Translations under genes and position numbers: made by a program | Origin: an uncultured Alphaproteobacteria bacterium | GTDB taxonomy: Bacteria > Pseudomonadota > Alphaproteobacteria > RF32 > CAG-239 | Reading direction: 5' to 3' | Assembly: GCA_944390315.1 (NCBI GenBank) | Contig: CALXPO010000024.1 | Coordinates: forward strand, 778-64,777 | DNA: 64,000 nt | Shown: positions 13,531-46,913 of the stretch, in pieces | How the letters are laid out: each line of letters opens with the position of its first letter | Position numbering within the stretch: the stretch's first letter is position 1 | The notes under the pieces: model-generated | Seen by the model: the letters and a program-made list of their open reading frames with translations, nothing else | Told to the model about the DNA's origin: nothing | Database searches by the model: none

Positions 13531-14118
13531 ATGAATAAAAAATTTTTAACATTAGCTTTGGCCGCTCTGCTCATCAGCGTATCTTCCGCCAATGCCGCGC
13601 CAAAACCACGTCCGATGGATGATCCCAAACGTCCGTCTCCGGAAATGATGGAAGTCAAATTGATTGAACAATTAAAACTGACACCCGAACAATATAATAC
13701 CATTCAGGAACGCCGCAAACTCGATAGGGAAAAAATGAAACCCCTGATGGATCAAATGAAAGAATTACATCAACAAATGAATGAAATTCGCAAAGCTAAT
13801 ATGAAGGCTTTTGAAGATATTTTGACCCCTGAGCAAAAGGCTGAATTTGATAAAATCAAAGCCGAACGTAAAGCTCGTCATGAAGAAAGAATGAAAAGAC
13901 ATCCGGGACCAAAAATGAAAAGAGGACATTTGCCGCCGGAACATATGAAACGCCCGCCGTTACCGGAACATCACCTTGCTGCACCGGCACCTAAAGATGC
14001 TCCTGCTCCGATGCCTGAAGATATACTGGCACCAATGCCTGAAGATGCCCCTGCTCCAATGCCCGAAGCACAACCGGCTTCCGAAACTCCGGCACCAAAG
14101 CCTGAGCCGGCAAAATAA
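13531..14118 (+). CDS. Periplasmic Spy/CpxP-family (LTXXQ motif) protein with a Pro/Ala-rich repetitive C-terminal tail.
   Basis: Signal peptide. Two LTPEQ motifs. C-terminal APAPMPED repeats. Confidence 0.7.
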   Translation: MNKKFLTLALAALLISVSSANAAPKPRPMDDPKRPSPEMMEVKLIEQLKLTPEQYNTIQERRKLDREKMKPLMDQMKELHQQMNEIRKANMKAFEDILTPEQKAEFDKIKAERKARHEERMKRHPGPKMKRGHLPPEHMKRPPLPEHHLAAPAPKDAPAPMPEDILAPMPEDAPAPMPEAQPASETPAPKPEPAK

Positions 14119-14127
14119 GCTAAGACA

Positions 14128-14274
14128 AATAGATGCCCCCAGTTTACTGGGGGTTCTATAACAGCTGCAAACCTTACGGTTTGACCACGCTCGTTGGCGT
14201 GGAGCGGTGTTGTTCCAACACCTTGGCATTCGGCCCCGAGTAAACTCGGGGTTTTCTGTAAGGCAACTAATAAA
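14128..14274 (+). repeat. Copy 1 of a roughly 146-bp structured dispersed repeat with four hairpins. Sits between convergent genes next to a bidirectional terminator hairpin (14279-14300).
   Basis: Near-identical (inverted) copy at 30003-30148 and a degenerate copy at 46463-46596. Internal palindromes: CCCCAG-TTTA-CTGGGG, CCACGC-CAACGA-GCGTGG, GGTGTTG-GAA-CAACACC, CCCCGAG-TAAACT-CGGGG. Confidence 0.8.
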
Positions 14275-14300
14275 AAAATCTCCGTTTATACGGAGATTTT

Positions 14301-15422
14301 TTATTGTTTCCACCATTTCAAAAAATTATCCCAAACCGAACTCGTCTTGGTCGGTATTGCTTTTTCAGAGTATTTGTTCGCCGGTAACGGAAAAATCTCT
14401 TTACCGTAAGGCGTTAAAACCTGCTTGATATATTCCGTACTGACGCGGCAAGTATGTATTCTTTTAAGCGAAGATTGACAAATATTAAGCCAAGCATCAC
14501 CTTGGGAAAACAAAAATAAAGGATTTTTTGATTTTAAAAATATCTTTGAAAACTCCGTCGGCTGAGATTGAAAGACCAATACCGACAAAAAATCACTTCG
14601 CTGCAAAAAAGAAATTTTTTCATAGTCATTATCCGAAGTCGACAGGACTAAAAAAATTCCACAAGCACCACCTTTTTGCAGCAATAAAGACATATAATTT
14701 TTAATCATAGATTCTTGTTGCATTAGACTGAGAAATTCATCTAAAACAACAATAATATACGGCAATTGTCCGACATGATTATGATAATCTCTGATATGGC
14801 GGCTGCCGCTTTTTTGAAAAAGCAACCGACGCCGTTCCGTTTCTTCGCATAACCAAGCCAAAGTCTCATGAACCTGCTCCGGTGTATTTAAAACCGGTGC
14901 CAACAAATAACTTTGCTGATTATATATATCAAACTCTCCATCGGCATTGAACAGAATGAACTTTATTTCATCTATGTTTTTCTTTAGAACCAAAGACAAA
15001 ATCAACGCCTTCAATGCCGATGTTTTGCCGCAGCCGCTTGTACCTAAAAGCAACAAATGTCGCATTTGATACAAATCAAATACTTGCGGAATACCGCTTA
15101 CATCGGTTCCAAAACAGACGGGCAATAAGGCGTGCGTCTTTTTAAATACTTCACCGGCTGACAAGGTTTCAAAATCAAGGGGGCTTTCCTGTTCAGCCGA
15201 AATTTCCAACAATAAGTTTTCAGTTTCGGGAAGATTCTCGCTAATAACTGACTTGCATCCCAGCTCTTCCATCATTTGCGGAATAATTTTTTCCAGCTCA
15301 CGGCTTTGATTTTCATCTATCCATACCAGCTCGGCCAACTCACATCTCGGTCCGCGACCTTGATGAATCATCTTGACTTTTAACCCGTGGACGTTCAAGT
15401 AATTTGCAACTTGCGATATCAC
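14301..15422 (-). CDS. FtsK/SpoIIIE-like P-loop ATPase. Motor-domain core only: no membrane anchor and no gamma domain.
   Basis: Walker A (LLLGTSGCGKTS), Walker B (YIIVVLDEF) and a GIFLVLSTS block align with the FtsK alpha/beta motor. At 373 aa it lacks the terminal domains. Confidence 0.65.
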   Translation of the reverse strand: MISQVANYLNVHGLKVKMIHQGRGPRCELAELVWIDENQSRELEKIIPQMMEELGCKSVISENLPETENLLLEISAEQESPLDFETLSAGEVFKKTHALLPVCFGTDVSGIPQVFDLYQMRHLLLLGTSGCGKTSALKALILSLVLKKNIDEIKFILFNADGEFDIYNQQSYLLAPVLNTPEQVHETLAWLCEETERRRLLFQKSGSRHIRDYHNHVGQLPYIIVVLDEFLSLMQQESMIKNYMSLLLQKGGACGIFLVLSTSDNDYEKISFLQRSDFLSVLVFQSQPTEFSKIFLKSKNPLFLFSQGDAWLNICQSSLKRIHTCRVSTEYIKQVLTPYGKEIFPLPANKYSEKAIPTKTSSVWDNFLKWWKQ

Positions 15423-24006: not shown

Positions 24007-24034
24007 TATAAACCTCCTAAAATAAAAAGCAGGC

Positions 24035-24440
24035 AGTCTGTAAGCCGGGTTCTGTATCGCAAAATATCGGTAAATATTTCAACGATTGATAGCCATTCAT
24101 CTTGGCGATATGTTACCACATCGCTCGGTGCGACCTACCTCTGGAGAGAAGTGGAAACGCTTCTTATGATTGGTAAAAACCAAACCTCCTAACTTGGTCT
24201 TGCTTCAAACAGGGTTTACCTTGCCAAAATCGTTGCCGATTTTGCGGTGAGCTCTTACCTCGCCTTTTCAACCTTACCGGAACTTGTCCGGCGGTAACTT
24301 TCTGCGGCACTTTCCCTTGGATTGCTCCAGCCGGACGTTATCCGGTGTTCTGTTTCCACGAAGCCCGGACTTTCCTCATCAATGGATTTTCCTTTCCTTG
24401 ACGCGGCTATCCGACCGCCTGCCCTTAGAAAGGTAATATT
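24035..24440 (-). ncRNA. rnpB: RNase P RNA (bacterial type A). Ends are approximate.
   Basis: Minus strand contains the universal GAGGAAAGUCCGGGC, GGGAAAGUGCC.CAGAAA and ACAGAACCCGGCUUA motifs in the correct order. P1 pairing between 5' GGCAGGCGG and 3' GACUGCCUGC. Confidence 0.8.
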
Positions 24441-29084: not shown

Positions 29085-29744
29085 ATGAAAAAATTTATCC
29101 TTTGTTTGACAACGGCTTTAATTACGGCTACATCTGCACAAGCTCAATATGTACGCAAAGTCGTACGCCCTAATTTTTTTATCCCCGAGCAAGAATTTAA
29201 TCGTGCAGAAAAATTACCCCCTTTCCCTCAATATGAAAATGAATATGATAAAGATATCAATTATGTCATTCCGGCCAAACAAAAACAGCGCCAAAAAATT
29301 AAAAAAGTCCAACCTGCAACGGAAACACAGGCCGTAAATGTTCAAACTTCTCCTCAAGAAAAAATTGAAAGTACACAAACCGATATTCAATCAACAACTA
29401 CGGCAAAACAAGAACCGACTCAGCTTATGCGTTGGAACTTATACCAAGAAGAACAATCTCAATCGGTTGAAAACAAAGTTGATTCCTCGGTAGCCATGCA
29501 ACCTTCACAAAAATTAGATTTACCTGTTGTAGACGAACGTGTCTTGCCTGATATGTCAACGGCAAAAGTTGATGACAATTTTGAGCAAACAGATGAATAT
29601 AAACAAATTGCACAAGAATATGCAAATGATATCAATACTCTTGCTCAAAGCGGACAACTGCCCGAAAATAAAAATATTTCAGATGCTTTGAGCAAAATGA
29701 TATCCGATGATGCTGTTTGGGTTGATGAAAATTTCGGCAAATGA
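29085..29744 (+). CDS. Secreted hypothetical protein, Q/E-rich.
   Basis: Clear signal peptide (ALITATSAQA-Q). No recognisable domain. Confidence 0.5.
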   Translation: MKKFILCLTTALITATSAQAQYVRKVVRPNFFIPEQEFNRAEKLPPFPQYENEYDKDINYVIPAKQKQRQKIKKVQPATETQAVNVQTSPQEKIESTQTDIQSTTTAKQEPTQLMRWNLYQEEQSQSVENKVDSSVAMQPSQKLDLPVVDERVLPDMSTAKVDDNFEQTDEYKQIAQEYANDINTLAQSGQLPENKNISDALSKMISDDAVWVDENFGK

Positions 29745-30002
29745 AAATATGTTGATTGGATAACATAGTTTTTTCTATGCTCTGGCAGCAATATTTTTTG
29801 TGACCTTTCACAAGCAAGTTTTTTGTTTCAAAATCAATCCACCTGTCCATATTTGCTGGGCATAGGTCTTTGCTGATTGATAGGTGTAAATTTTATTCGT
29901 CTGTCGCAAAGTTTTTTACGGTAGTTATGACGGCATCTCTTGGCTTATGTTGTCCGGAGATAATTTAACCATAAAAAAAACTCCCGATTAAGGGAGTTTT
30001 TT

Positions 30003-30148
30003 TATTAGTTGCCTTACAGAAAACCCCGAGTTTACTCGGGGCTGAATGCCAAGGTGTTGGAACAACACCGCTCCACGCCAACGAGCGTGGTCAAACCATA
30101 AGGTTTGTAGCTGTTATAGAACCCCCAGTTTACTGGGGGATATCTATT
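30003..30148 (-). repeat. Copy 2 (inverted orientation) of the roughly 146-bp structured dispersed repeat. Adjacent to a terminator hairpin (29979-30002).
   Basis: Reverse complement is about 97% identical to 14128-14274. Confidence 0.8.
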
Positions 30149-30162
30149 CTTTGTTGTTTTGC

Positions 30163-31242
<1,080 letters not shown>

Positions 31243-35604: not shown

Positions 35605-35642
35605 CGGTCTAAACTCCCTTTTGTTTTGTTTGTTATTTTTGG

Positions 35643-35818
35643 TAAAACAAAACCGCCTTAAAAAATCTCAAGGCGGGGAGTTGACAACTGCACAAGAACA
35701 GTCTGGGTTATTCGCTGTACTTAAAAAAAAGAATACACTTATATCCCCAGCTCCCCTTAAAAGGAGTTGTTCTTTCTTGTGAGGAGCTGTCACACTCCGC
35801 CTCCGACCTCTCGGAGGC
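35643..35818 (-). ncRNA. Putative sRNA, copy A (about 176 nt). Minus-strand promoter TTGCCA-N17-TAATAT (35854 to 35826) and an intrinsic terminator (stem CCGCCUU/AAGGCGG + U-tract) ending near 35643.
   Basis: Perfect-spacing promoter and terminator bracket a structured RNA with several unpaired CUCC (anti-SD-like) motifs. No protein-coding potential. Confidence 0.4.
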
Positions 35819-35899
35819 AAAAGCCATATTAAAAAAATCCTGTTCGATTGGCAAGTCTTTTATTATACTTTCTCCCCTTTGTTTTGTTCATATTTTAGG

Positions 35900-36073
35900 T
35901 AAAACAAAACCGCCTTAAAAAATTTCAAGGCGGGGAGTTAGCAACTGCACAAGAACAGTCTGGGTTATTCGCTGTACTCCAAAAAGAATACACTTATATC
36001 CCCAGCTCCCCTTTAAAGGAGTTGTTCTTTCTTGTGAGGAGCTGCTACACTCCGCCTCCGACCTCTCGGAGAC
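35900..36073 (-). ncRNA. Putative sRNA, copy B. It is a paralog of copy A and has the same promoter (TTGCCA-N17-TAATAT at 36109 to 36081) and terminator.
   Basis: Same as copy A. Promoter, stems and terminator are all conserved between copies. Confidence 0.4.
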
Positions 36074-36207
36074 AAAAGCCATATTAAAAAAATCTTGTCC
36101 GATTGGCAAGTCTTTTTATCTCGTTTGAATATATCAAAACATGTTGAATAAAAAATATGAACGGCTATACTTTTAACATCCATTGCTAACTCAGAGGAAA
36201 TACCTAC

Positions 36208-42115: not shown

Positions 42116-43456
42116 TCAGTCCTCCTTGGGTTTATTTTTATTTTTTTCATAACGGAGTTTTTCAAAATACTCCACTCTTTTTTTGACTTCTCTCTCAAAT
42201 CCTCTTTCGACCGGATAGTAGAGTTTTTGACGGCTTATACCGTCAGGAAAATAATTTTGTCCCGAAAAGCCGTCTTCCAGATCTTGATCATAAATATAGC
42301 CTTCGTGATAGCCCAAATTTTTCATTAATTTGGTCGGAGCATTCAAAATATGTTTCGGCGGCATCAATGAACCTGTCTTTTTTGCCAAATCAAACGCTTT
42401 GTGCATTGCTTTGTATACACCTGCCGACTTGGGCGCCGTCGCCAGATAAACCGTCAGCTGCATCAAAGCCAAATCACCTTCGGGCGAGCCTAAACGCTCA
42501 TAAGTCTGCCAACAAGAGATTGCTTGCGTAACCGCATTGGGGTCAGCCATTGAAACATCTTCTACCGCAAATCGGGTTAAACGGCGAAAAATATATTTCG
42601 GGTCCTCCCCCGCATCTATCATCCGCGCTACCCAATACAGCGCCGCATCAACATCGGAACCTCGCAGAGACTTATGAACCGCCGATATTAAATTATAATG
42701 CCCGTCTCGTCCTTTATCGTATATCGGAGCTCGTGAACGAATAATTTTTAACAAGGCTTCTTTATCAAAAATTTCGCCTTCTTTGGCATAATTAAATACA
42801 CTTTCCGCTAAATTTAAGATATATCTGCCGTCACCGTCGGCGGTTGCTTTCATCAATTCACGAGCTTCGTCATCAACAGGCAATTTACGCCCGACTTCTT
42901 TTTCGGCACGTTTGAGCAATTCTTCAAAATTATCGGAACTTAATCTATTGAGTACAAAGACCTGACAGCGTGATAAAAGCGCCGCATTGAGTTCAAAGGA
43001 TGGATTTTCGGTAGTTGCACCGACCAAAATAATCGTACCGTCTTCAACATAAGGCAAAAAACCGTCTTGTTGGGACTTGTTAAAACGATGAATTTCATCA
43101 ACAAATAACAACGTCCCCTGTCCCTGATTGGCACGTCTGTCTTCAGCGTACTGAAAAACCCTTTTTAGATCAGCTACCCCGGAAAATACAGCGGAAATTT
43201 GTTCAAAATATAGATTGGTATGCTCGGCAATCAATCGTGCAATCGTCGTTTTGCCGCAACCGGGAGGTCCCCATAAAATAAATGAAGTTATTTTTCCAGA
43301 TTTTAGCATTCTTCCCAAAGGTGCATCCGGACCGACAACTTGGTCTTGACCGACGACTTCGCTTAAATCCTTCGGACGTAATCTGTCTGCCAGCGGACGC
43401 TTTATTTTTTGTGAAAATAATGTCTCTTCCATCTTCCACCTATCTCTGATATCCAC
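42116..43456 (-). CDS. rarA: Replication-associated recombination protein A (RarA/MgsA AAA+ ATPase).
   Basis: Walker A (GPPGCGKTT), Walker B (LFVDEIHRF) and a MgsA C-terminal domain. Confidence 0.9.
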   Translation of the reverse strand: MDIRDRWKMEETLFSQKIKRPLADRLRPKDLSEVVGQDQVVGPDAPLGRMLKSGKITSFILWGPPGCGKTTIARLIAEHTNLYFEQISAVFSGVADLKRVFQYAEDRRANQGQGTLLFVDEIHRFNKSQQDGFLPYVEDGTIILVGATTENPSFELNAALLSRCQVFVLNRLSSDNFEELLKRAEKEVGRKLPVDDEARELMKATADGDGRYILNLAESVFNYAKEGEIFDKEALLKIIRSRAPIYDKGRDGHYNLISAVHKSLRGSDVDAALYWVARMIDAGEDPKYIFRRLTRFAVEDVSMADPNAVTQAISCWQTYERLGSPEGDLALMQLTVYLATAPKSAGVYKAMHKAFDLAKKTGSLMPPKHILNAPTKLMKNLGYHEGYIYDQDLEDGFSGQNYFPDGISRQKLYYPVERGFEREVKKRVEYFEKLRYEKNKNKPKED

Positions 43457-45068
43457 CGCGGTCGCGAGAAGTTATCATATCTTGATTCTCTTTCTGGCGT
43501 CTTTTATTTTCTAAAACTCGACGCTTGCGTTCTTCTATAACACTGCGCAATTCTTCTTTATTGGCTCGGTTCTGCTCTCTGATTTTTGCCAAAGCCTCTT
43601 CATCCGTCGCAGGACCTTTGTCCCGTTTTTGATGTTTAAAAACTTTTTGACCTAATTTAACTAAGTTATCAACATCCATTCCCTTAAAACCACCGACGTT
43701 ATAAACACCGAAATTGCGTGCATCCCCTAAGAATAAGTCGGTAAAATCAATTCCTTTCATGCCGCCTTTGCGTGTTTTTTTCTTCGGAGCTAAAATTTGT
43801 TTTATTTCCATGGCCGAAGGTACGCGTCCCAAGGCTTGAGCAATTTGCTCGGGCGTAATAATACATTCACTCAAATCAAGTTCGGCAATATTAACACCGG
43901 TAAAATCTACTCCCGTAAAATCAACACCGCGTAAATTGAGCTTGCTTAAATCTATTTTTTTCAAATCCAGCAAAGTCAGATTAATGCGGCTCAGATTAAG
44001 TTTGTGCGGATAGTAGGTTGCCAAATATTCTATCAGTTTTTGCAGCTCTTCAAGACTGATTTCGTCCATCGTTATGTCAAGTAAAATGGCATCTTGGAAA
44101 TAGACATCAGTCAGAACAACATTATCCATTTTGGCACCGGTAAAGTTGGTACCTATCAATTGTGCGCCGGCAAAAACCGCTCCCGTCAAATCTGCTCCCG
44201 AAAGATTGGTGTTGGTCAGATTGGCTCCAGAAAAATCAGCTCCGGACAAATTGGAACCCGAAAAATTAACCCCTGACAAATTGGCTGCCGAAAAGTTGGC
44301 ATTAGACAAATCTTCGTGATCAAACTCACCGTTTTCCAAGTTTTTGCCGTTAAATTCAATATTTAATATCGGCAAATCATCTTCGGGACGACGTGATACG
44401 GCATGCCATGGATCAGGATCCCCATCGTCATCATCAGGTGGCAAAGACTTTTTATCTTCTTCATCATCGCTACCTTCGTCACCATCATCTTCTTCATCAT
44501 CGCGACGATGGTAATCGTCATCTTCATCATCATCGCTACCTTCATCACCATCATCATCTTCATCATCGCGATGGCGGTAATCGTCATCTTCTTCATCATC
44601 ACGACGGCGGTAATCATCATCTTCTTCATCATCGCGACGACGGTAATCATCATCTTCTTCATCACCTCTGCGGCGGCGGCAATCATCATCTTCTTCATCA
44701 TCGCGGCGGCGGTAATCATCATCTTCTTCATCATCGCGGCGGCGGTAATCGTTACCTTCTTCATCACCTCTGCGGCGGCGGTAATCGTTACCTTCTTCAT
44801 CACCTCTGCGGCGGCGGTAATCGTTACCTTCTTCATCACCTCTGCGGCGGCGGTAATCATATACTTTGTTATGAGCTTTCTTGCCTTCAGCCGCTTCATA
44901 TTGTACTTTTTTTCTTTTTATTCTTGATTTCTTTTTTTCGCGCGCTATTTTTTCTTGCTCTTCATCACAAATAGCAAAAGCATAATCATCGCCGCTTGAT
45001 TGCATAGCGGCTCGCGTTCTGTCCCTAATTGCTTTTAGAGCGGCAATTTTTTCTTCGTCCGTTGCCAT
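43440..45068 (-). CDS. Pentapeptide-repeat protein with an N-terminal array of highly charged 12-aa tandem repeats (DYRRRRGDEEGN / DYRRRDDEEDDD). Candidate secreted effector.
   Basis: Two blocks of A(D/N)LSG-type pentapeptide repeats. A 36-bp DNA tandem array encodes the charged repeats. Confidence 0.7.
   Translation of the reverse strand: MATDEEKIAALKAIRDRTRAAMQSSGDDYAFAICDEEQEKIAREKKKSRIKRKKVQYEAAEGKKAHNKVYDYRRRRGDEEGNDYRRRRGDEEGNDYRRRRGDEEGNDYRRRDDEEDDDYRRRDDEEDDDCRRRRGDEEDDDYRRRDDEEDDDYRRRDDEEDDDYRHRDDEDDDGDEGSDDDEDDDYHRRDDEEDDGDEGSDDEEDKKSLPPDDDDGDPDPWHAVSRRPEDDLPILNIEFNGKNLENGEFDHEDLSNANFSAANLSGVNFSGSNLSGADFSGANLTNTNLSGADLTGAVFAGAQLIGTNFTGAKMDNVVLTDVYFQDAILLDITMDEISLEELQKLIEYLATYYPHKLNLSRINLTLLDLKKIDLSKLNLRGVDFTGVDFTGVNIAELDLSECIITPEQIAQALGRVPSAMEIKQILAPKKKTRKGGMKGIDFTDLFLGDARNFGVYNVGGFKGMDVDNLVKLGQKVFKHQKRDKGPATDEEALAKIREQNRANKEELRSVIEERKRRVLENKRRQKENQDMITSRDRGGYQR
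44484..44862. repeat. In-frame 36-bp tandem repeat array of about 10 units. The last three units (44736-44843) are perfect copies. The array lies inside the pentapeptide-repeat gene.
   Basis: Direct reading: GCGGCGGCGGTAATCGTTACCTTCTTCATCACCTCT occurs three times exactly, with progressively diverged upstream units. Confidence 0.85.
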
Positions 45069-45797: not shown

Positions 45798-46415
45798 ATG
45801 ATTAAAAAAATTCTTTCTATATTTTGCGCCGCTGCTCTCGTTTCTACCCTTGCCGCTTGCGCTTCTACGGACGAAGCCGTTCCTCAAAAATACAATGAAC
45901 CGCGTTTTAATACCGATGGCGTAGTCAATCTTAAAGTTAATAAAGTTGAAGTTATCTCCGAATTTACTCCTTCTTTTACTCGTCCAAATGTTGAGCATTT
46001 GTTCCCCGTCTCTATTGAAAAAACTGCTAAACTTTGGGCTACTGATCGCCTCAAAGCCGTAGATTTTTCCTCCGATAAGCAAGCTACTTTTATCATTAAA
46101 GATGCCAGCGTTACCGAAGAAGTTGTTAAATCTGACAAATTATTTGAAAAAGACAGCTTGAAATATCGCGCTAAATTGTCTGTCGTTTTGAAGATTAGTG
46201 ATCCATACAATTTTTCTAGTGCCGAAACTTCTTTGGAAGCATGGCGTGAATTAACTATCCCTGTTGACACTTCTATTGAAGATAAAGAAAAATACTGGAA
46301 CAGTATGGTCGAAAAATTATTTGAAGAATTTAATGCTCGTATGCAGATGAATATTAATAAATATTTGAATATGTATATCGCAGATTCTGAACATGTAGAA
46401 GTTTACGACGAATAA
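45798..46415 (+). CDS. Hypothetical lipoprotein.
   Basis: Lipobox LAAC after a signal peptide. Terminator hairpin at 46440-46465. Confidence 0.55.
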   Translation: MIKKILSIFCAAALVSTLAACASTDEAVPQKYNEPRFNTDGVVNLKVNKVEVISEFTPSFTRPNVEHLFPVSIEKTAKLWATDRLKAVDFSSDKQATFIIKDASVTEEVVKSDKLFEKDSLKYRAKLSVVLKISDPYNFSSAETSLEAWRELTIPVDTSIEDKEKYWNSMVEKLFEEFNARMQMNINKYLNMYIADSEHVEVYDE

Positions 46416-46462
46416 TTAAAACTTGTATATCTTATAAAACCCGCTTACTTAAGCGGGTTTTT

Positions 46463-46596
46463 TTATTGCTTGCCGTAAAACCACGAGTTTACTCGAGACG
46501 AATGCTAAGGTATGTCGCTAGGCACTGCTCCACGCCAACGAACGTGGTCAAACCGTAAGGCTTGTCGCTATTATAGAACCCAGTTTACTGAGTGAT
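46463..46596 (-). repeat. Copy 3 (degenerate) of the structured dispersed repeat. It is followed by a further decayed partial copy (46597-46700).
   Basis: Alignable to 30003-30148 with the core CCACGCCAACGA(A/G)CGTGGTCAAACC conserved. Sits next to a terminator hairpin. Confidence 0.6.
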
Positions 46597-46913
46597 ACCT
46601 ATTGCTTACCTTACAAAACGCCAATTTGTTCTGTGCTGAATACTAAACTGTTGGATAAGAAAACATTCCACACCAACGAGCCTGTCATCGCTAAATTTGA
46701 GCAGCTTTTGCTCTCTGAAGCTCTCTATACTTCAAACGTAACCGCCTCATTTTCATAACGAATATAGACATATCCGCATCAGATTCTCAGAGTTTTTGCA
46801 CTCGTCCGAAAAAATCATAATATTATGTTCTTATCTTTACCAAACACAATTTAACTCAAAAAAAATCCCCGCTTTTGCAGAGATTTTTAACTGATATCTT
46901 TATTACTTTAAAA

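Follow-up and report, generated by a model that had tools for sequence, protein, structure and literature searches.

A hairpin-rich intergenic repeat of uncultured gut Alphaproteobacteria as a probable miniature derivative of an IS200-group insertion sequence

Copies of the repeat and their surroundings

The window analysed here is a stretch of 64,000 nt from an uncultured Alphaproteobacteria bacterium (assembly GCA_944390315.1, contig CALXPO010000024.1, positions 778 to 64,777 of the forward strand), in which an intergenic repeat of approximately 142 bp occurs in several copies. We conclude, with a probability of roughly 0.9, that this repeat is a non-autonomous miniature derivative of an insertion sequence (IS) of 559-561 bp belonging to the IS200 group of the IS200/IS605 family, i.e. 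a palindrome-associated transposable element (PATE), the equivalent of a MITE (miniature inverted-repeat transposable element). Feature coordinates are given in the sense of tnpA, the transposase gene of the parent IS (top strand), which is opposite to the orientation of a preliminary description of the window. Loci outside the window carry L numbers.

A family profile (nhmmer, in the orientation of the preliminary description) matches 14129-14274 (+), 30001-30147 (-) and 46458-46602 (-), hereafter c1, c2 and c3. These are the three places where the preliminary description had located copies; all three are clear, but a partial fourth copy, c4, at 46598-46707 (-) had been missed. The copies c1 and c2 are mutually inverted and 97% complementary across 143 nt (arms 14136-14278 and 29997-30139), and a 20-mer core motif has 3 matches in the window against 0.00 expected from 100 shuffles. 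Both ends of c2 are intact, and the copy differs from the family consensus at a single base (A for G at 30100, in the loop of hairpin H4). In c1 the loop of the right-end hairpin is inverted (GTAAAC for GTTTAC) and the terminal sequence is GGGGGCATCTAT in place of GGGGGATATCTAT, implying that this copy may be immobile. At 14136-14153 the + strand of c1 has TTTA where all other copies have TAAA, as if the loop had been flipped inside the palindrome; the variant is also found in the same-species contigs L144 and L145. The left end of c3 opens with TGCTTGCC, which is close to TGCAAGC, the left-end sequence in L106-L115, copies of the full IS.

All three sites in the window lie between convergent genes. 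The neighbours are a 195-aa gene at 13531-14118 (+) and an FtsK-domain gene at 14301-15422 (-) for c1, a 219-aa gene at 29085-29744 (+) and mreB at 30163-31203 (-) for c2, and a 205-aa gene at 45798-46415 (+) and a DUF525 gene (-) for c3 and c4. With respect to the 195-aa gene (c1) and mreB (c2), the element is situated between the stop codon and a bidirectional terminator, and the two copies probably join the 3' untranslated regions (UTRs) of these genes. The terminator scan places c3 and c4 between two separate terminators, and they are therefore outside either transcription unit. Among same-species samples with identical flanking proteins, c1 and c2 are present in every sampled strain.

Anatomy of the element

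Read along the top strand, the element and its site consist of host hairpin, T-run and TTAT / TAGTTGCCTTACAGAAAA - CCCCGAG TTTA CTCGGGG - three inner hairpins - GAA - CCCCCAG TTTA CTGGGGG - ATATCTAT / variable flank. The four palindromes named in the preliminary description are present, but its four-hairpin architecture is incomplete, as a fifth palindrome (AAACC/GGTTT) lies beside them; both single-sequence and consensus folds give five separate local hairpins. The two subterminal hairpins, CCCCGAGTTTACTCGGGG and CCCCCAGTTTACTGGGGG, have the same sense on one strand, each with the loop TTTA. The termini, TAGTTGCC... and ...ATATCTAT, are unrelated, i.e. the element has no terminal inverted repeats, and the end spacers are asymmetric, the one between left cut and hairpin measuring 18 nt and the one between hairpin and right cut 8 nt. 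Normal copies are predicted to be able to pair their terminal TCTA with the TAGA that lies 5' of the right hairpin. The module of three inner hairpins is missing from the parent IS and appears to be passenger sequence.

Shorter forms also occur. A 45-nt form with a single hairpin, TGTTGCCTTACAGAAAA-CCCCCAGTTTACTGGGGG-ATATCTAT, is found at L119 (1359-1384 region) and at L140:1834-1878, the latter on the viral-collection contig IMGVR_UViG_3300029770_000229, and it directly follows a terminator hairpin. The right-end hairpin also occurs solo and perfectly palindromic, as ATAGATATCCCCCAG TTTA CTGGGGGATATCTAT, at L131:1412-1444 and L132:3520-3552, where the rest of the element is missing.

Parent insertion sequence and transposase

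The assignment of the repeat is carried by its ends. At L036 (3501-4068), an open reading frame (ORF) of 142 aa, running opposite to the orientation of the preliminary description, has the same right end on one side and a variant of the left end on the other. Its product matches the Pfam family Y1_Tnp over its full length (E=1.9e-31) and aligns with the solved Y1 transposases 2ec2, 2f4f, 2a6m (ISHp608) and 2xm3 (ISDra2), with the HUH motif and the C-terminal Tyr matched. A 92% identical TnpA, P0003 (232 member sequences), is found in complete ISs of 559-561 bp at several distinct gut-metagenome sites. Four further metagenome loci carry tnpA. The gene lies between the same or closely related ends at L036, L106-L115, L130, L134 and L137.

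The full ISs share one layout, host hairpin, T-run and TTAT / TGCAAGCTTTGCTGAAAA-CCCCCAGTTTACTGGGGG ... tnpA ... GAA-CCCCCAGTTTACTGGGGG-ATATCTAT / flank. All of them terminate in GAACCCCCAGTTTACTGGGGGATATCTAT, the same as the right end of the repeat, and their left end, TTAT/TGCAAGCTTTGCTGAAAA followed by the hairpin, is a close variant of the left end of the repeat; the repeat copies at L025 and L033 have exactly the left-end variant of L036. Since the ends of the repeat are those of a Y1-encoding IS200-group IS, and approximately 142 bp is too short for a transposase gene, the repeat is a PATE. It is thus a known kind of mobile DNA, a described class (PMC3119063), and not the novel kind of family that the preliminary description had announced. 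From near-identical copies at unrelated sites in many genomes, we infer that the element is mobile.

The whole parent IS of 559-561 bp can be seen at L106, L108, L110, L114, L115 and L134. Four metagenome contigs (L110-L113) have a common left flank of the full IS and differing right flanks, reflecting either assembly chimerism across the repeat or recombination between copies. The copies at L016:2-72 and L009:6384-6450 follow a hairpin of the CCACCGGC/GCCGGTGG type, which could possibly be the end of another IS200-like element; at L016, tblastn gives a very weak match (E=6.4) to the C-terminus of TnpA ahead of this hairpin.

Distribution among gut Alphaproteobacteria

A collection of species-representative genomes scanned with an 18-nt core motif yielded at least 105 loci. 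Since the motif is fixed by the search pattern, conservation of the central hairpin H3 is uninformative. The whole element is carried by at least about 80 loci, with 88-100% identity, sharp ends and unrelated flanks, in at least 35 assemblies other than that of the window, nearly all labelled as uncultured gut Alphaproteobacteria or proteobacteria. The samples come from human (including Hadza), sheep and roe deer sources, with one record labelled MGBC. At least nine loci derive from a single metagenome-assembled genome (MAG), in agreement with the dispersed, MITE-like, multi-copy family that the preliminary description had supposed; the family is not confined to the copies of the window, nor do these belong to a larger duplicated segment, as the flanks of the copies are unrelated. 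Many copies are located at true contig ends, in keeping with a repeat that breaks assemblies. A metagenome scan with the right-end motif added 24 further loci and one contig of a viral collection, while a plasmid collection gave no match to the element.

At least 15 loci are exactly the consensus, and consensus-identical copies are found in MAGs whose flanking coding DNA is only ~68-72% identical. Such identity in diverged hosts points to recent bursts and horizontal spread rather than to conservation. Judged from these sequence comparisons, the element is real, abundant and recently active. Diverged copies (71-86% identity) also occur on six unannotated 'Bacteriophage sp.' contigs from human faeces (MT838190.1, MT839539.1, MT835680.1, MT835812.1, MT836093.1 and MT837319.1), which may be transfer vehicles or bacterial fragments in viromes.

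Fold, covariation and the question of function

The preliminary description proposed that the element stabilises mRNA or insulates transcription units. In that case it would be a selected structured RNA, transcribed in 3' UTRs ahead of the terminator and spreading as a useful sequence. The fold, whose calculation had been suggested as a check, is indeed far more stable than those of shuffled sequences on both strands (z = -8.1 and -7.4). Across species, the copies share 95-100% identity, three hairpins show compensatory changes, and c1 and c2 have the 3' UTR position described above, which is what misled the preliminary description to a functional reading.

Several results are at odds with such a function. 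The ends of the element are transposon ends common to a transposase-carrying IS. In an RNAalifold consensus over 30 distinct copies, all ten base pairs with compensatory changes belong to the left-end hairpin, the right-end hairpin and H2, so that covariation is concentrated in the two transposase-binding hairpins; none is found in H4 or in H3, the latter held constant by the search pattern. For one orthologous pair of copies (L054/L029, with the same right flank and a homologous terminator stem), the element is 92.5% and the flank 91% identical. Because the element has diverged as much as its flank, the pair shows neutral decay, which argues against a selected RNA function. Furthermore, c3 and c4 sit between two terminators, and in general the element comes after the terminator T-tract belonging to the co-oriented gene; in many host terminators, a good T-run is confined to the strand that places the element downstream. 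No Rfam family reaches its threshold for the element. RNase P alone passes the gathering threshold in the window, a permissive Rfam scan of 14080-14340 gave nothing at threshold and best matches mostly on the host terminator, and the IS200 small RNA family STnc490 scored 17.7 bits against a gathering threshold of 56. Taken together, a selected structured RNA seems to us quite improbable. On the strand opposite to the tnpA sense, the left-end hairpin (14234-14259 and 30016-30041) is followed by TTTTCTGT, and the element thereby resembles a weak intrinsic terminator for the genes converging from the right-end side (mreB and the 195-aa gene), one which the terminator scan did not list.

A second explanation is that the element is a repeat of the repetitive extragenic palindrome (REP) or REPIN type, kept by a single-copy domesticated REP-associated tyrosine transposase (RAYT) rather than derived from a true IS. 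The element is extragenic, palindromic and close to gene 3' ends, the 45-nt form has a single hairpin, and the enzyme is a Y1 HUH protein, as are RAYTs, which belong to the same superfamily. Against the NCBIfam models, however, the ORF of L036 scores 122.9 bits for transpos_IS200 (cutoff 55) and only 29 bits for RAYT (cutoff 80). Moreover, tnpA is multi-copy and forms, together with the left and right ends that frame it, a unit of 559 bp present at several different sites, and the repeat, at ~142 bp with two different ends, is neither a 20-40-nt REP nor an inverted REP doublet. We therefore rejected membership in the REP/RAYT system, which is less probable still than an RNA function.

Insertion site and proposed mechanism

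In nearly all copies, TTAT or TTTAT is found 5' of the TAG... left end, the usual target being TTTTTTAT. One conserved locus is occupied at L030 and empty at L029 and L053. The empty site reads ...CTCCTTTTTAT/ATAAGATTT and the occupied one ...CTCTTTTTAT, the element (TAG...ATCTAT), then ATAAGATTT; the comparison, which involves a single empty site, is consistent with integration 3' of TTAT and no duplication. Adjoining this insertion site is a structured segment of ~90-150 nt that is conserved (L030:7482-7568 (-), L029 and L053). It scores 28.8 bits for the skipping-rope RNA (RF02924), below the gathering threshold of 36.7, and it supplied, with its outer stem, the 'terminator-like' hairpin of the insertion.

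Tandem copies (c3-c4; L008) begin directly after the CTAT of the preceding copy, as would be expected of a near-cognate target. The c3 locus varies within the species: L148 (GCA_949286285.1, CASEBZ010000010.1) and L149 hold an extra, nearly identical tandem unit of 137 nt in the arrangement c3-c3'-c4, produced by either unequal recombination or re-insertion after CTAT.

The steps of binding, cutting and circle formation can be proposed from the established mechanism of the IS200/IS605 family. A TnpA dimer, supplied in trans, would bind both subterminal hairpins on the top strand; its cuts would fall 3' of the TTAT flanking the left end and, at the right end, 3' of CTAT. The single-stranded circle thus released would be pasted 3' of TTAT in a single-stranded target ('peel and paste'), leaving the target unduplicated. 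Immediately 5' of the left hairpin, the run AAAA occupies the position of the IS608 guide and might pair with TTAT in the manner in which the guide AAAG pairs with its TTAC target in IS608 (PMC5934647).

Integration into the template of the lagging strand is expected for transposition of the IS200/IS605 type (PMC5027513). Of 74 copies, 52 have the top strand of the element on the G>C strand; among the 50 for which |skew| exceeds 0.05, the number is 37 (p=9e-4). This bias matches the direction expected for lagging-strand-template insertion, although it is confounded with the orientation of genes and terminators.

The remaining alternative, a classical MITE that a DDE transposase mobilises and that duplicates TA or TAT at its target site, could account for the TAT at both junctions and for the single empty site, which is compatible with a 3-bp duplication, but it is the least probable of all, as the extreme ends (TAGTTGCCTTACAG... 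and ...GGGGGATATCTAT) are not mutual inverted repeats, the subterminal hairpins are not equally far from their respective ends, the Y1 enzyme is the only transposase found between these ends, and the 'duplicated' TAT does not vary, in keeping with a fixed target and a fixed element end.

Some observations speak against a Y1-mobilised IS200-group derivative and should be weighed here. TAT ends both the target and the element, which leaves an ambiguity of up to 4 nt in the boundaries and makes a 3-bp TAT duplication formally possible. The orientation bias is confounded with the leading-strand bias of genes and terminators; in the window, the skew of the + strand is negative throughout, which fits the orientation of c1 but not those of c2, c3 and c4. 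One-sided changes at base pairs are about 15 G-T against 15 C-A, i.e. without a strand signal. The parent IS is not the source of the inner 85 nt. Exact-protein look-ups of three flanking genes gave occupied sites only, with no empty site in the same species, and a degenerate DNA pattern for the mreB C-terminus, applied in the search for empty sites, had no match in metagenome contigs. Finally, tblastn of TnpA detected no tnpA in the 64-kb window; the copies of the window would accordingly depend on a tnpA located elsewhere, or they are immobile now.

Association with intrinsic terminators

The preliminary description noted that the copies directly abut terminators. The adjacency is real in the window and for 53 of 64 copies elsewhere, but the polarity is reversed: in the orientation of TnpA, the T-tract of the host terminator leads directly into TTAT and the left end, which puts the element immediately downstream. 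Hairpins were scored by a criterion combining minimum free energy and distance, with unoccupied TTAT and TTTTAT sites as the non-coding control. An upstream hairpin is found at 82.8% of the occupied sites (n=64), compared with 8.8% of unoccupied non-coding TTAT (n=2597), 14.3% of unoccupied non-coding TTTTAT (n=616) and 3.7% of unoccupied coding TTAT (n=10438). Therefore, the motif alone cannot explain the pattern. A clear hairpin was also recognised by eye in five of the seven left flanks of full ISs that were inspected (L036 and six more).

The pattern could originate either from a preference of the transposase for a T-tract and TTAT beside a hairpin, or from loss of the insertions made elsewhere. 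We consider it most likely that the association arises from target choice (T-tract and TTAT next to a hairpin) reinforced by selection, since landing just past a terminator would be harmless to the host and would shield the element from read-through transcription. Of the two ideas in the preliminary description, targeting of terminators is hence the better one and is plausible. We set aside the possibility that TnpA binds the target hairpin as a mimic of the element's right end, because in the integration complex as currently accepted the junction fills both hairpin-binding sites (PMC5027513). For IS608, duplex DNA adjoining the target gave no stimulus to integration (PMC5027513), and the left end of IS200 holds its own bidirectional terminator that blocks impinging transcription (PMC4513863).

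The terminator association may have a precedent within the group. In a 1998 study by Odaert et al., insertions of IS1541, a relative of IS200, reportedly cluster at terminator-like stem-loops downstream of genes; if so, the terminator behaviour is not new for the IS200 group.

A more far-reaching possibility is that this IS200-group lineage has true structure-directed targeting of terminators (hairpin, T-tract and TTAT) and that, jointly, the three-hairpin core of the miniature has a role of its own. We hold this combination to be unlikely, though worth stating. If true, the targeting would be a DNA-transposon counterpart of that of group IIC introns, and the core might, for example, fold or protect the single-stranded intermediate or act in the 3' UTRs of convergent genes. 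The near-identical copies in hosts ~30% apart would then represent frequent horizontal transfer, perhaps via phages, given the virome contigs with copies.

Features of the window

The features assigned to the four copies are collected in Table 1. The hairpin and T-run at 29973-30003 are absent from the output of the terminator scan and were recognised by reading the sequence. Elsewhere in the window, an RNase P RNA of bacterial class A lies at 24025-24422 (-), with 288 bits. At least ten tandem 33-nt repeats (one with 36-nt spacing) occupy 44389-44856 within the minus-strand ORF 43440-45068 and would code for an 11-residue protein repeat. Two adjoining direct repeats of ~240 nt, 90-96% identical and spaced by 255-257 nt, are located at 35625-36116.

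Table 1. Coordinates of the repeat copies and of associated features in the window.
Feature	Coordinates	Strand	Basis
c1, PATE copy	14129..14269	-	nhmmer E=5.7e-50; sequence; alignments
c1 right-end subterminal hairpin, CCCCCAG-loop-CTGGGGG (IP_R equivalent)	14136..14153	-	sequence; fold
c1 left-end subterminal hairpin, CCCCGAG-loop-CTCGGGG (IP_L equivalent)	14234..14251	-	fold; compensatory changes in the family
TTAT at c1 left end (ATAA on +), putative target/cleavage site C_L	14270..14273	-	conserved in nearly all copies; empty-site comparison
Host bidirectional intrinsic terminator between convergent 13531-14118 (+) and 14301-15422 (-)	14273..14302	both	terminator scan; ORFs
Host hairpin CTCCC/GGGAG, with A-run before and T-run after, abutting c2	29973..30003	.	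sequence reading; upstream-hairpin test
TTAT at c2 left end	30002..30005	+	sequence
c2, PATE copy, top strand on +	30006..30147	+	nhmmer E=3.5e-54
c2 left-end hairpin, AGAAAA just 5' (guide-like run at IS608 G_L position)	30024..30041	+	sequence; IS608 layout (PMC5934647)
c2 internal three-hairpin module (H2 30053-30069, H3 30073-30090, H4 30093-30106)	30053..30106	+	sequence; alignment
c2 right-end hairpin, then ATATCTAT at 30140-30147 (final 8 nt)	30122..30139	+	same as right end of full IS
Host terminator of 45798-46415 (+) with T-tract, then TTAT 46463-46466 flanking c3	46436..46466	+	terminator scan (46436-46461); sequence
c3, decayed copy, hairpins mutated	46467..46602	+	nhmmer E=2e-29
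c4, shortened and heavily decayed, left end through H3; 3' limit approximate; in tandem with c3	46603..46690	+	nhmmer E=1.4e-8, model positions 57-144

Significance

The assignment accounts for a repeat that is conspicuous and breaks assemblies in gut Alphaproteobacteria that are uncultured and poorly known, and the ends, target and parent IS constitute an anatomy that annotation pipelines can use. The points of some interest are the very small parent IS, the strict placement just after terminator T-tracts, the conserved three-hairpin core and the near-identity across species. In particular, the tight post-terminator placement of both the IS and its miniature offers a natural data set on whether Y1 transposases sense structure next to a 4-nt target. 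The practical consequence for the host is small: copies lengthen the 3' UTRs of some convergent genes (probably mreB here), and they provide homology for rearrangements and tandem expansion.

Comparison with known systems

The Correia/NEMIS, ERIC and REP/BIME elements are similar to the present repeat in that they are short, intergenic, hairpin-forming, multi-copy and near gene ends. Correia elements are bounded by terminal inverted repeats of 26 bp and show a TA duplication, the whole of ERIC forms a single long imperfect palindrome, and REPs are single 20-40-nt palindromes tied to RAYTs. As the preliminary description had stated, the repeat does not match the Correia element: its two ends are not inverted repeats of each other, a judgement made from the description of Correia elements and not from a reference sequence. 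ERIC/IRU was rejected because the repeat forms five separate local hairpins rather than one long palindrome.

Group IIC introns likewise integrate directly downstream of intrinsic terminator stem-loops, and do so with a fixed orientation. They are, however, retroelements with a ribozyme and a reverse transcriptase, nothing of which is present here.

IS608 and ISDra2, of the IS605 group, have transposases with solved structures to which the present one aligns, and they share its end layout; the spacers of IS608 are 19 and 10 nt, compared with 18 and 8 nt here. The guide-like AAAA/TTAT pairing follows the AAAG/TTAC pattern of IS608 (PMC5934647), and the orientation bias, though confounded with that of genes and terminators, agrees with the use of the lagging-strand template. 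In contrast to the IS605 group, neither tnpB nor an omega-RNA-like match is present here, and the target is TTAT, usually as part of TTTTTTAT. The pronounced hairpin association upstream of the target also differs from IS608, which is unstimulated by adjacent duplex (PMC5027513).

With IS200 of Salmonella and IS1541 of Yersinia, the present IS shares a single small Y1 transposase gene and subterminal hairpins. The host terminator stands here where IS200 keeps its own left-end bidirectional terminator (PMC4513863); the IS described in this work has no left-end terminator of its own and relies on that of the host. At 559-561 bp, it is shorter than IS200, which at 707 bp has been called the smallest fully autonomous IS (PMC4513863). 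It is also outnumbered by its high-copy miniature, and it has no match to STnc490 above threshold.

The closest likeness is to the PATEs, which were defined in Haloquadratum walsbyi (PMC3119063), noted in Halanaerobium (PMC7290912) and derived from IS200/IS605-family elements. By definition, they have no terminal inverted repeats, carry palindromes near both termini, cause no target duplication and are too short for a transposase (PMC3119063; PMC7290912). The present repeat agrees with them in its insufficient length for a transposase, the lack of terminal inverted repeats, the similar palindromes close to both termini, the conserved 4-5-nt target flanking the 5' end, the lack of an evident duplication and the ends common to a transposase-bearing IS. 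The distance from the 5' end to the palindrome is the longer one in both cases (PMC3119063), and the 45-nt form has its counterpart in the 52-bp PATEs that consist of termini only (PMC3119063). The differences are that the parent here is a tnpA-only IS200-group element of gut Alphaproteobacteria, whereas theirs is archaeal and of the IS605/IS1341 type, that the present repeat has a conserved 85-nt three-hairpin core unrelated to the parent IS, and that it strongly prefers sites right after intrinsic terminators.

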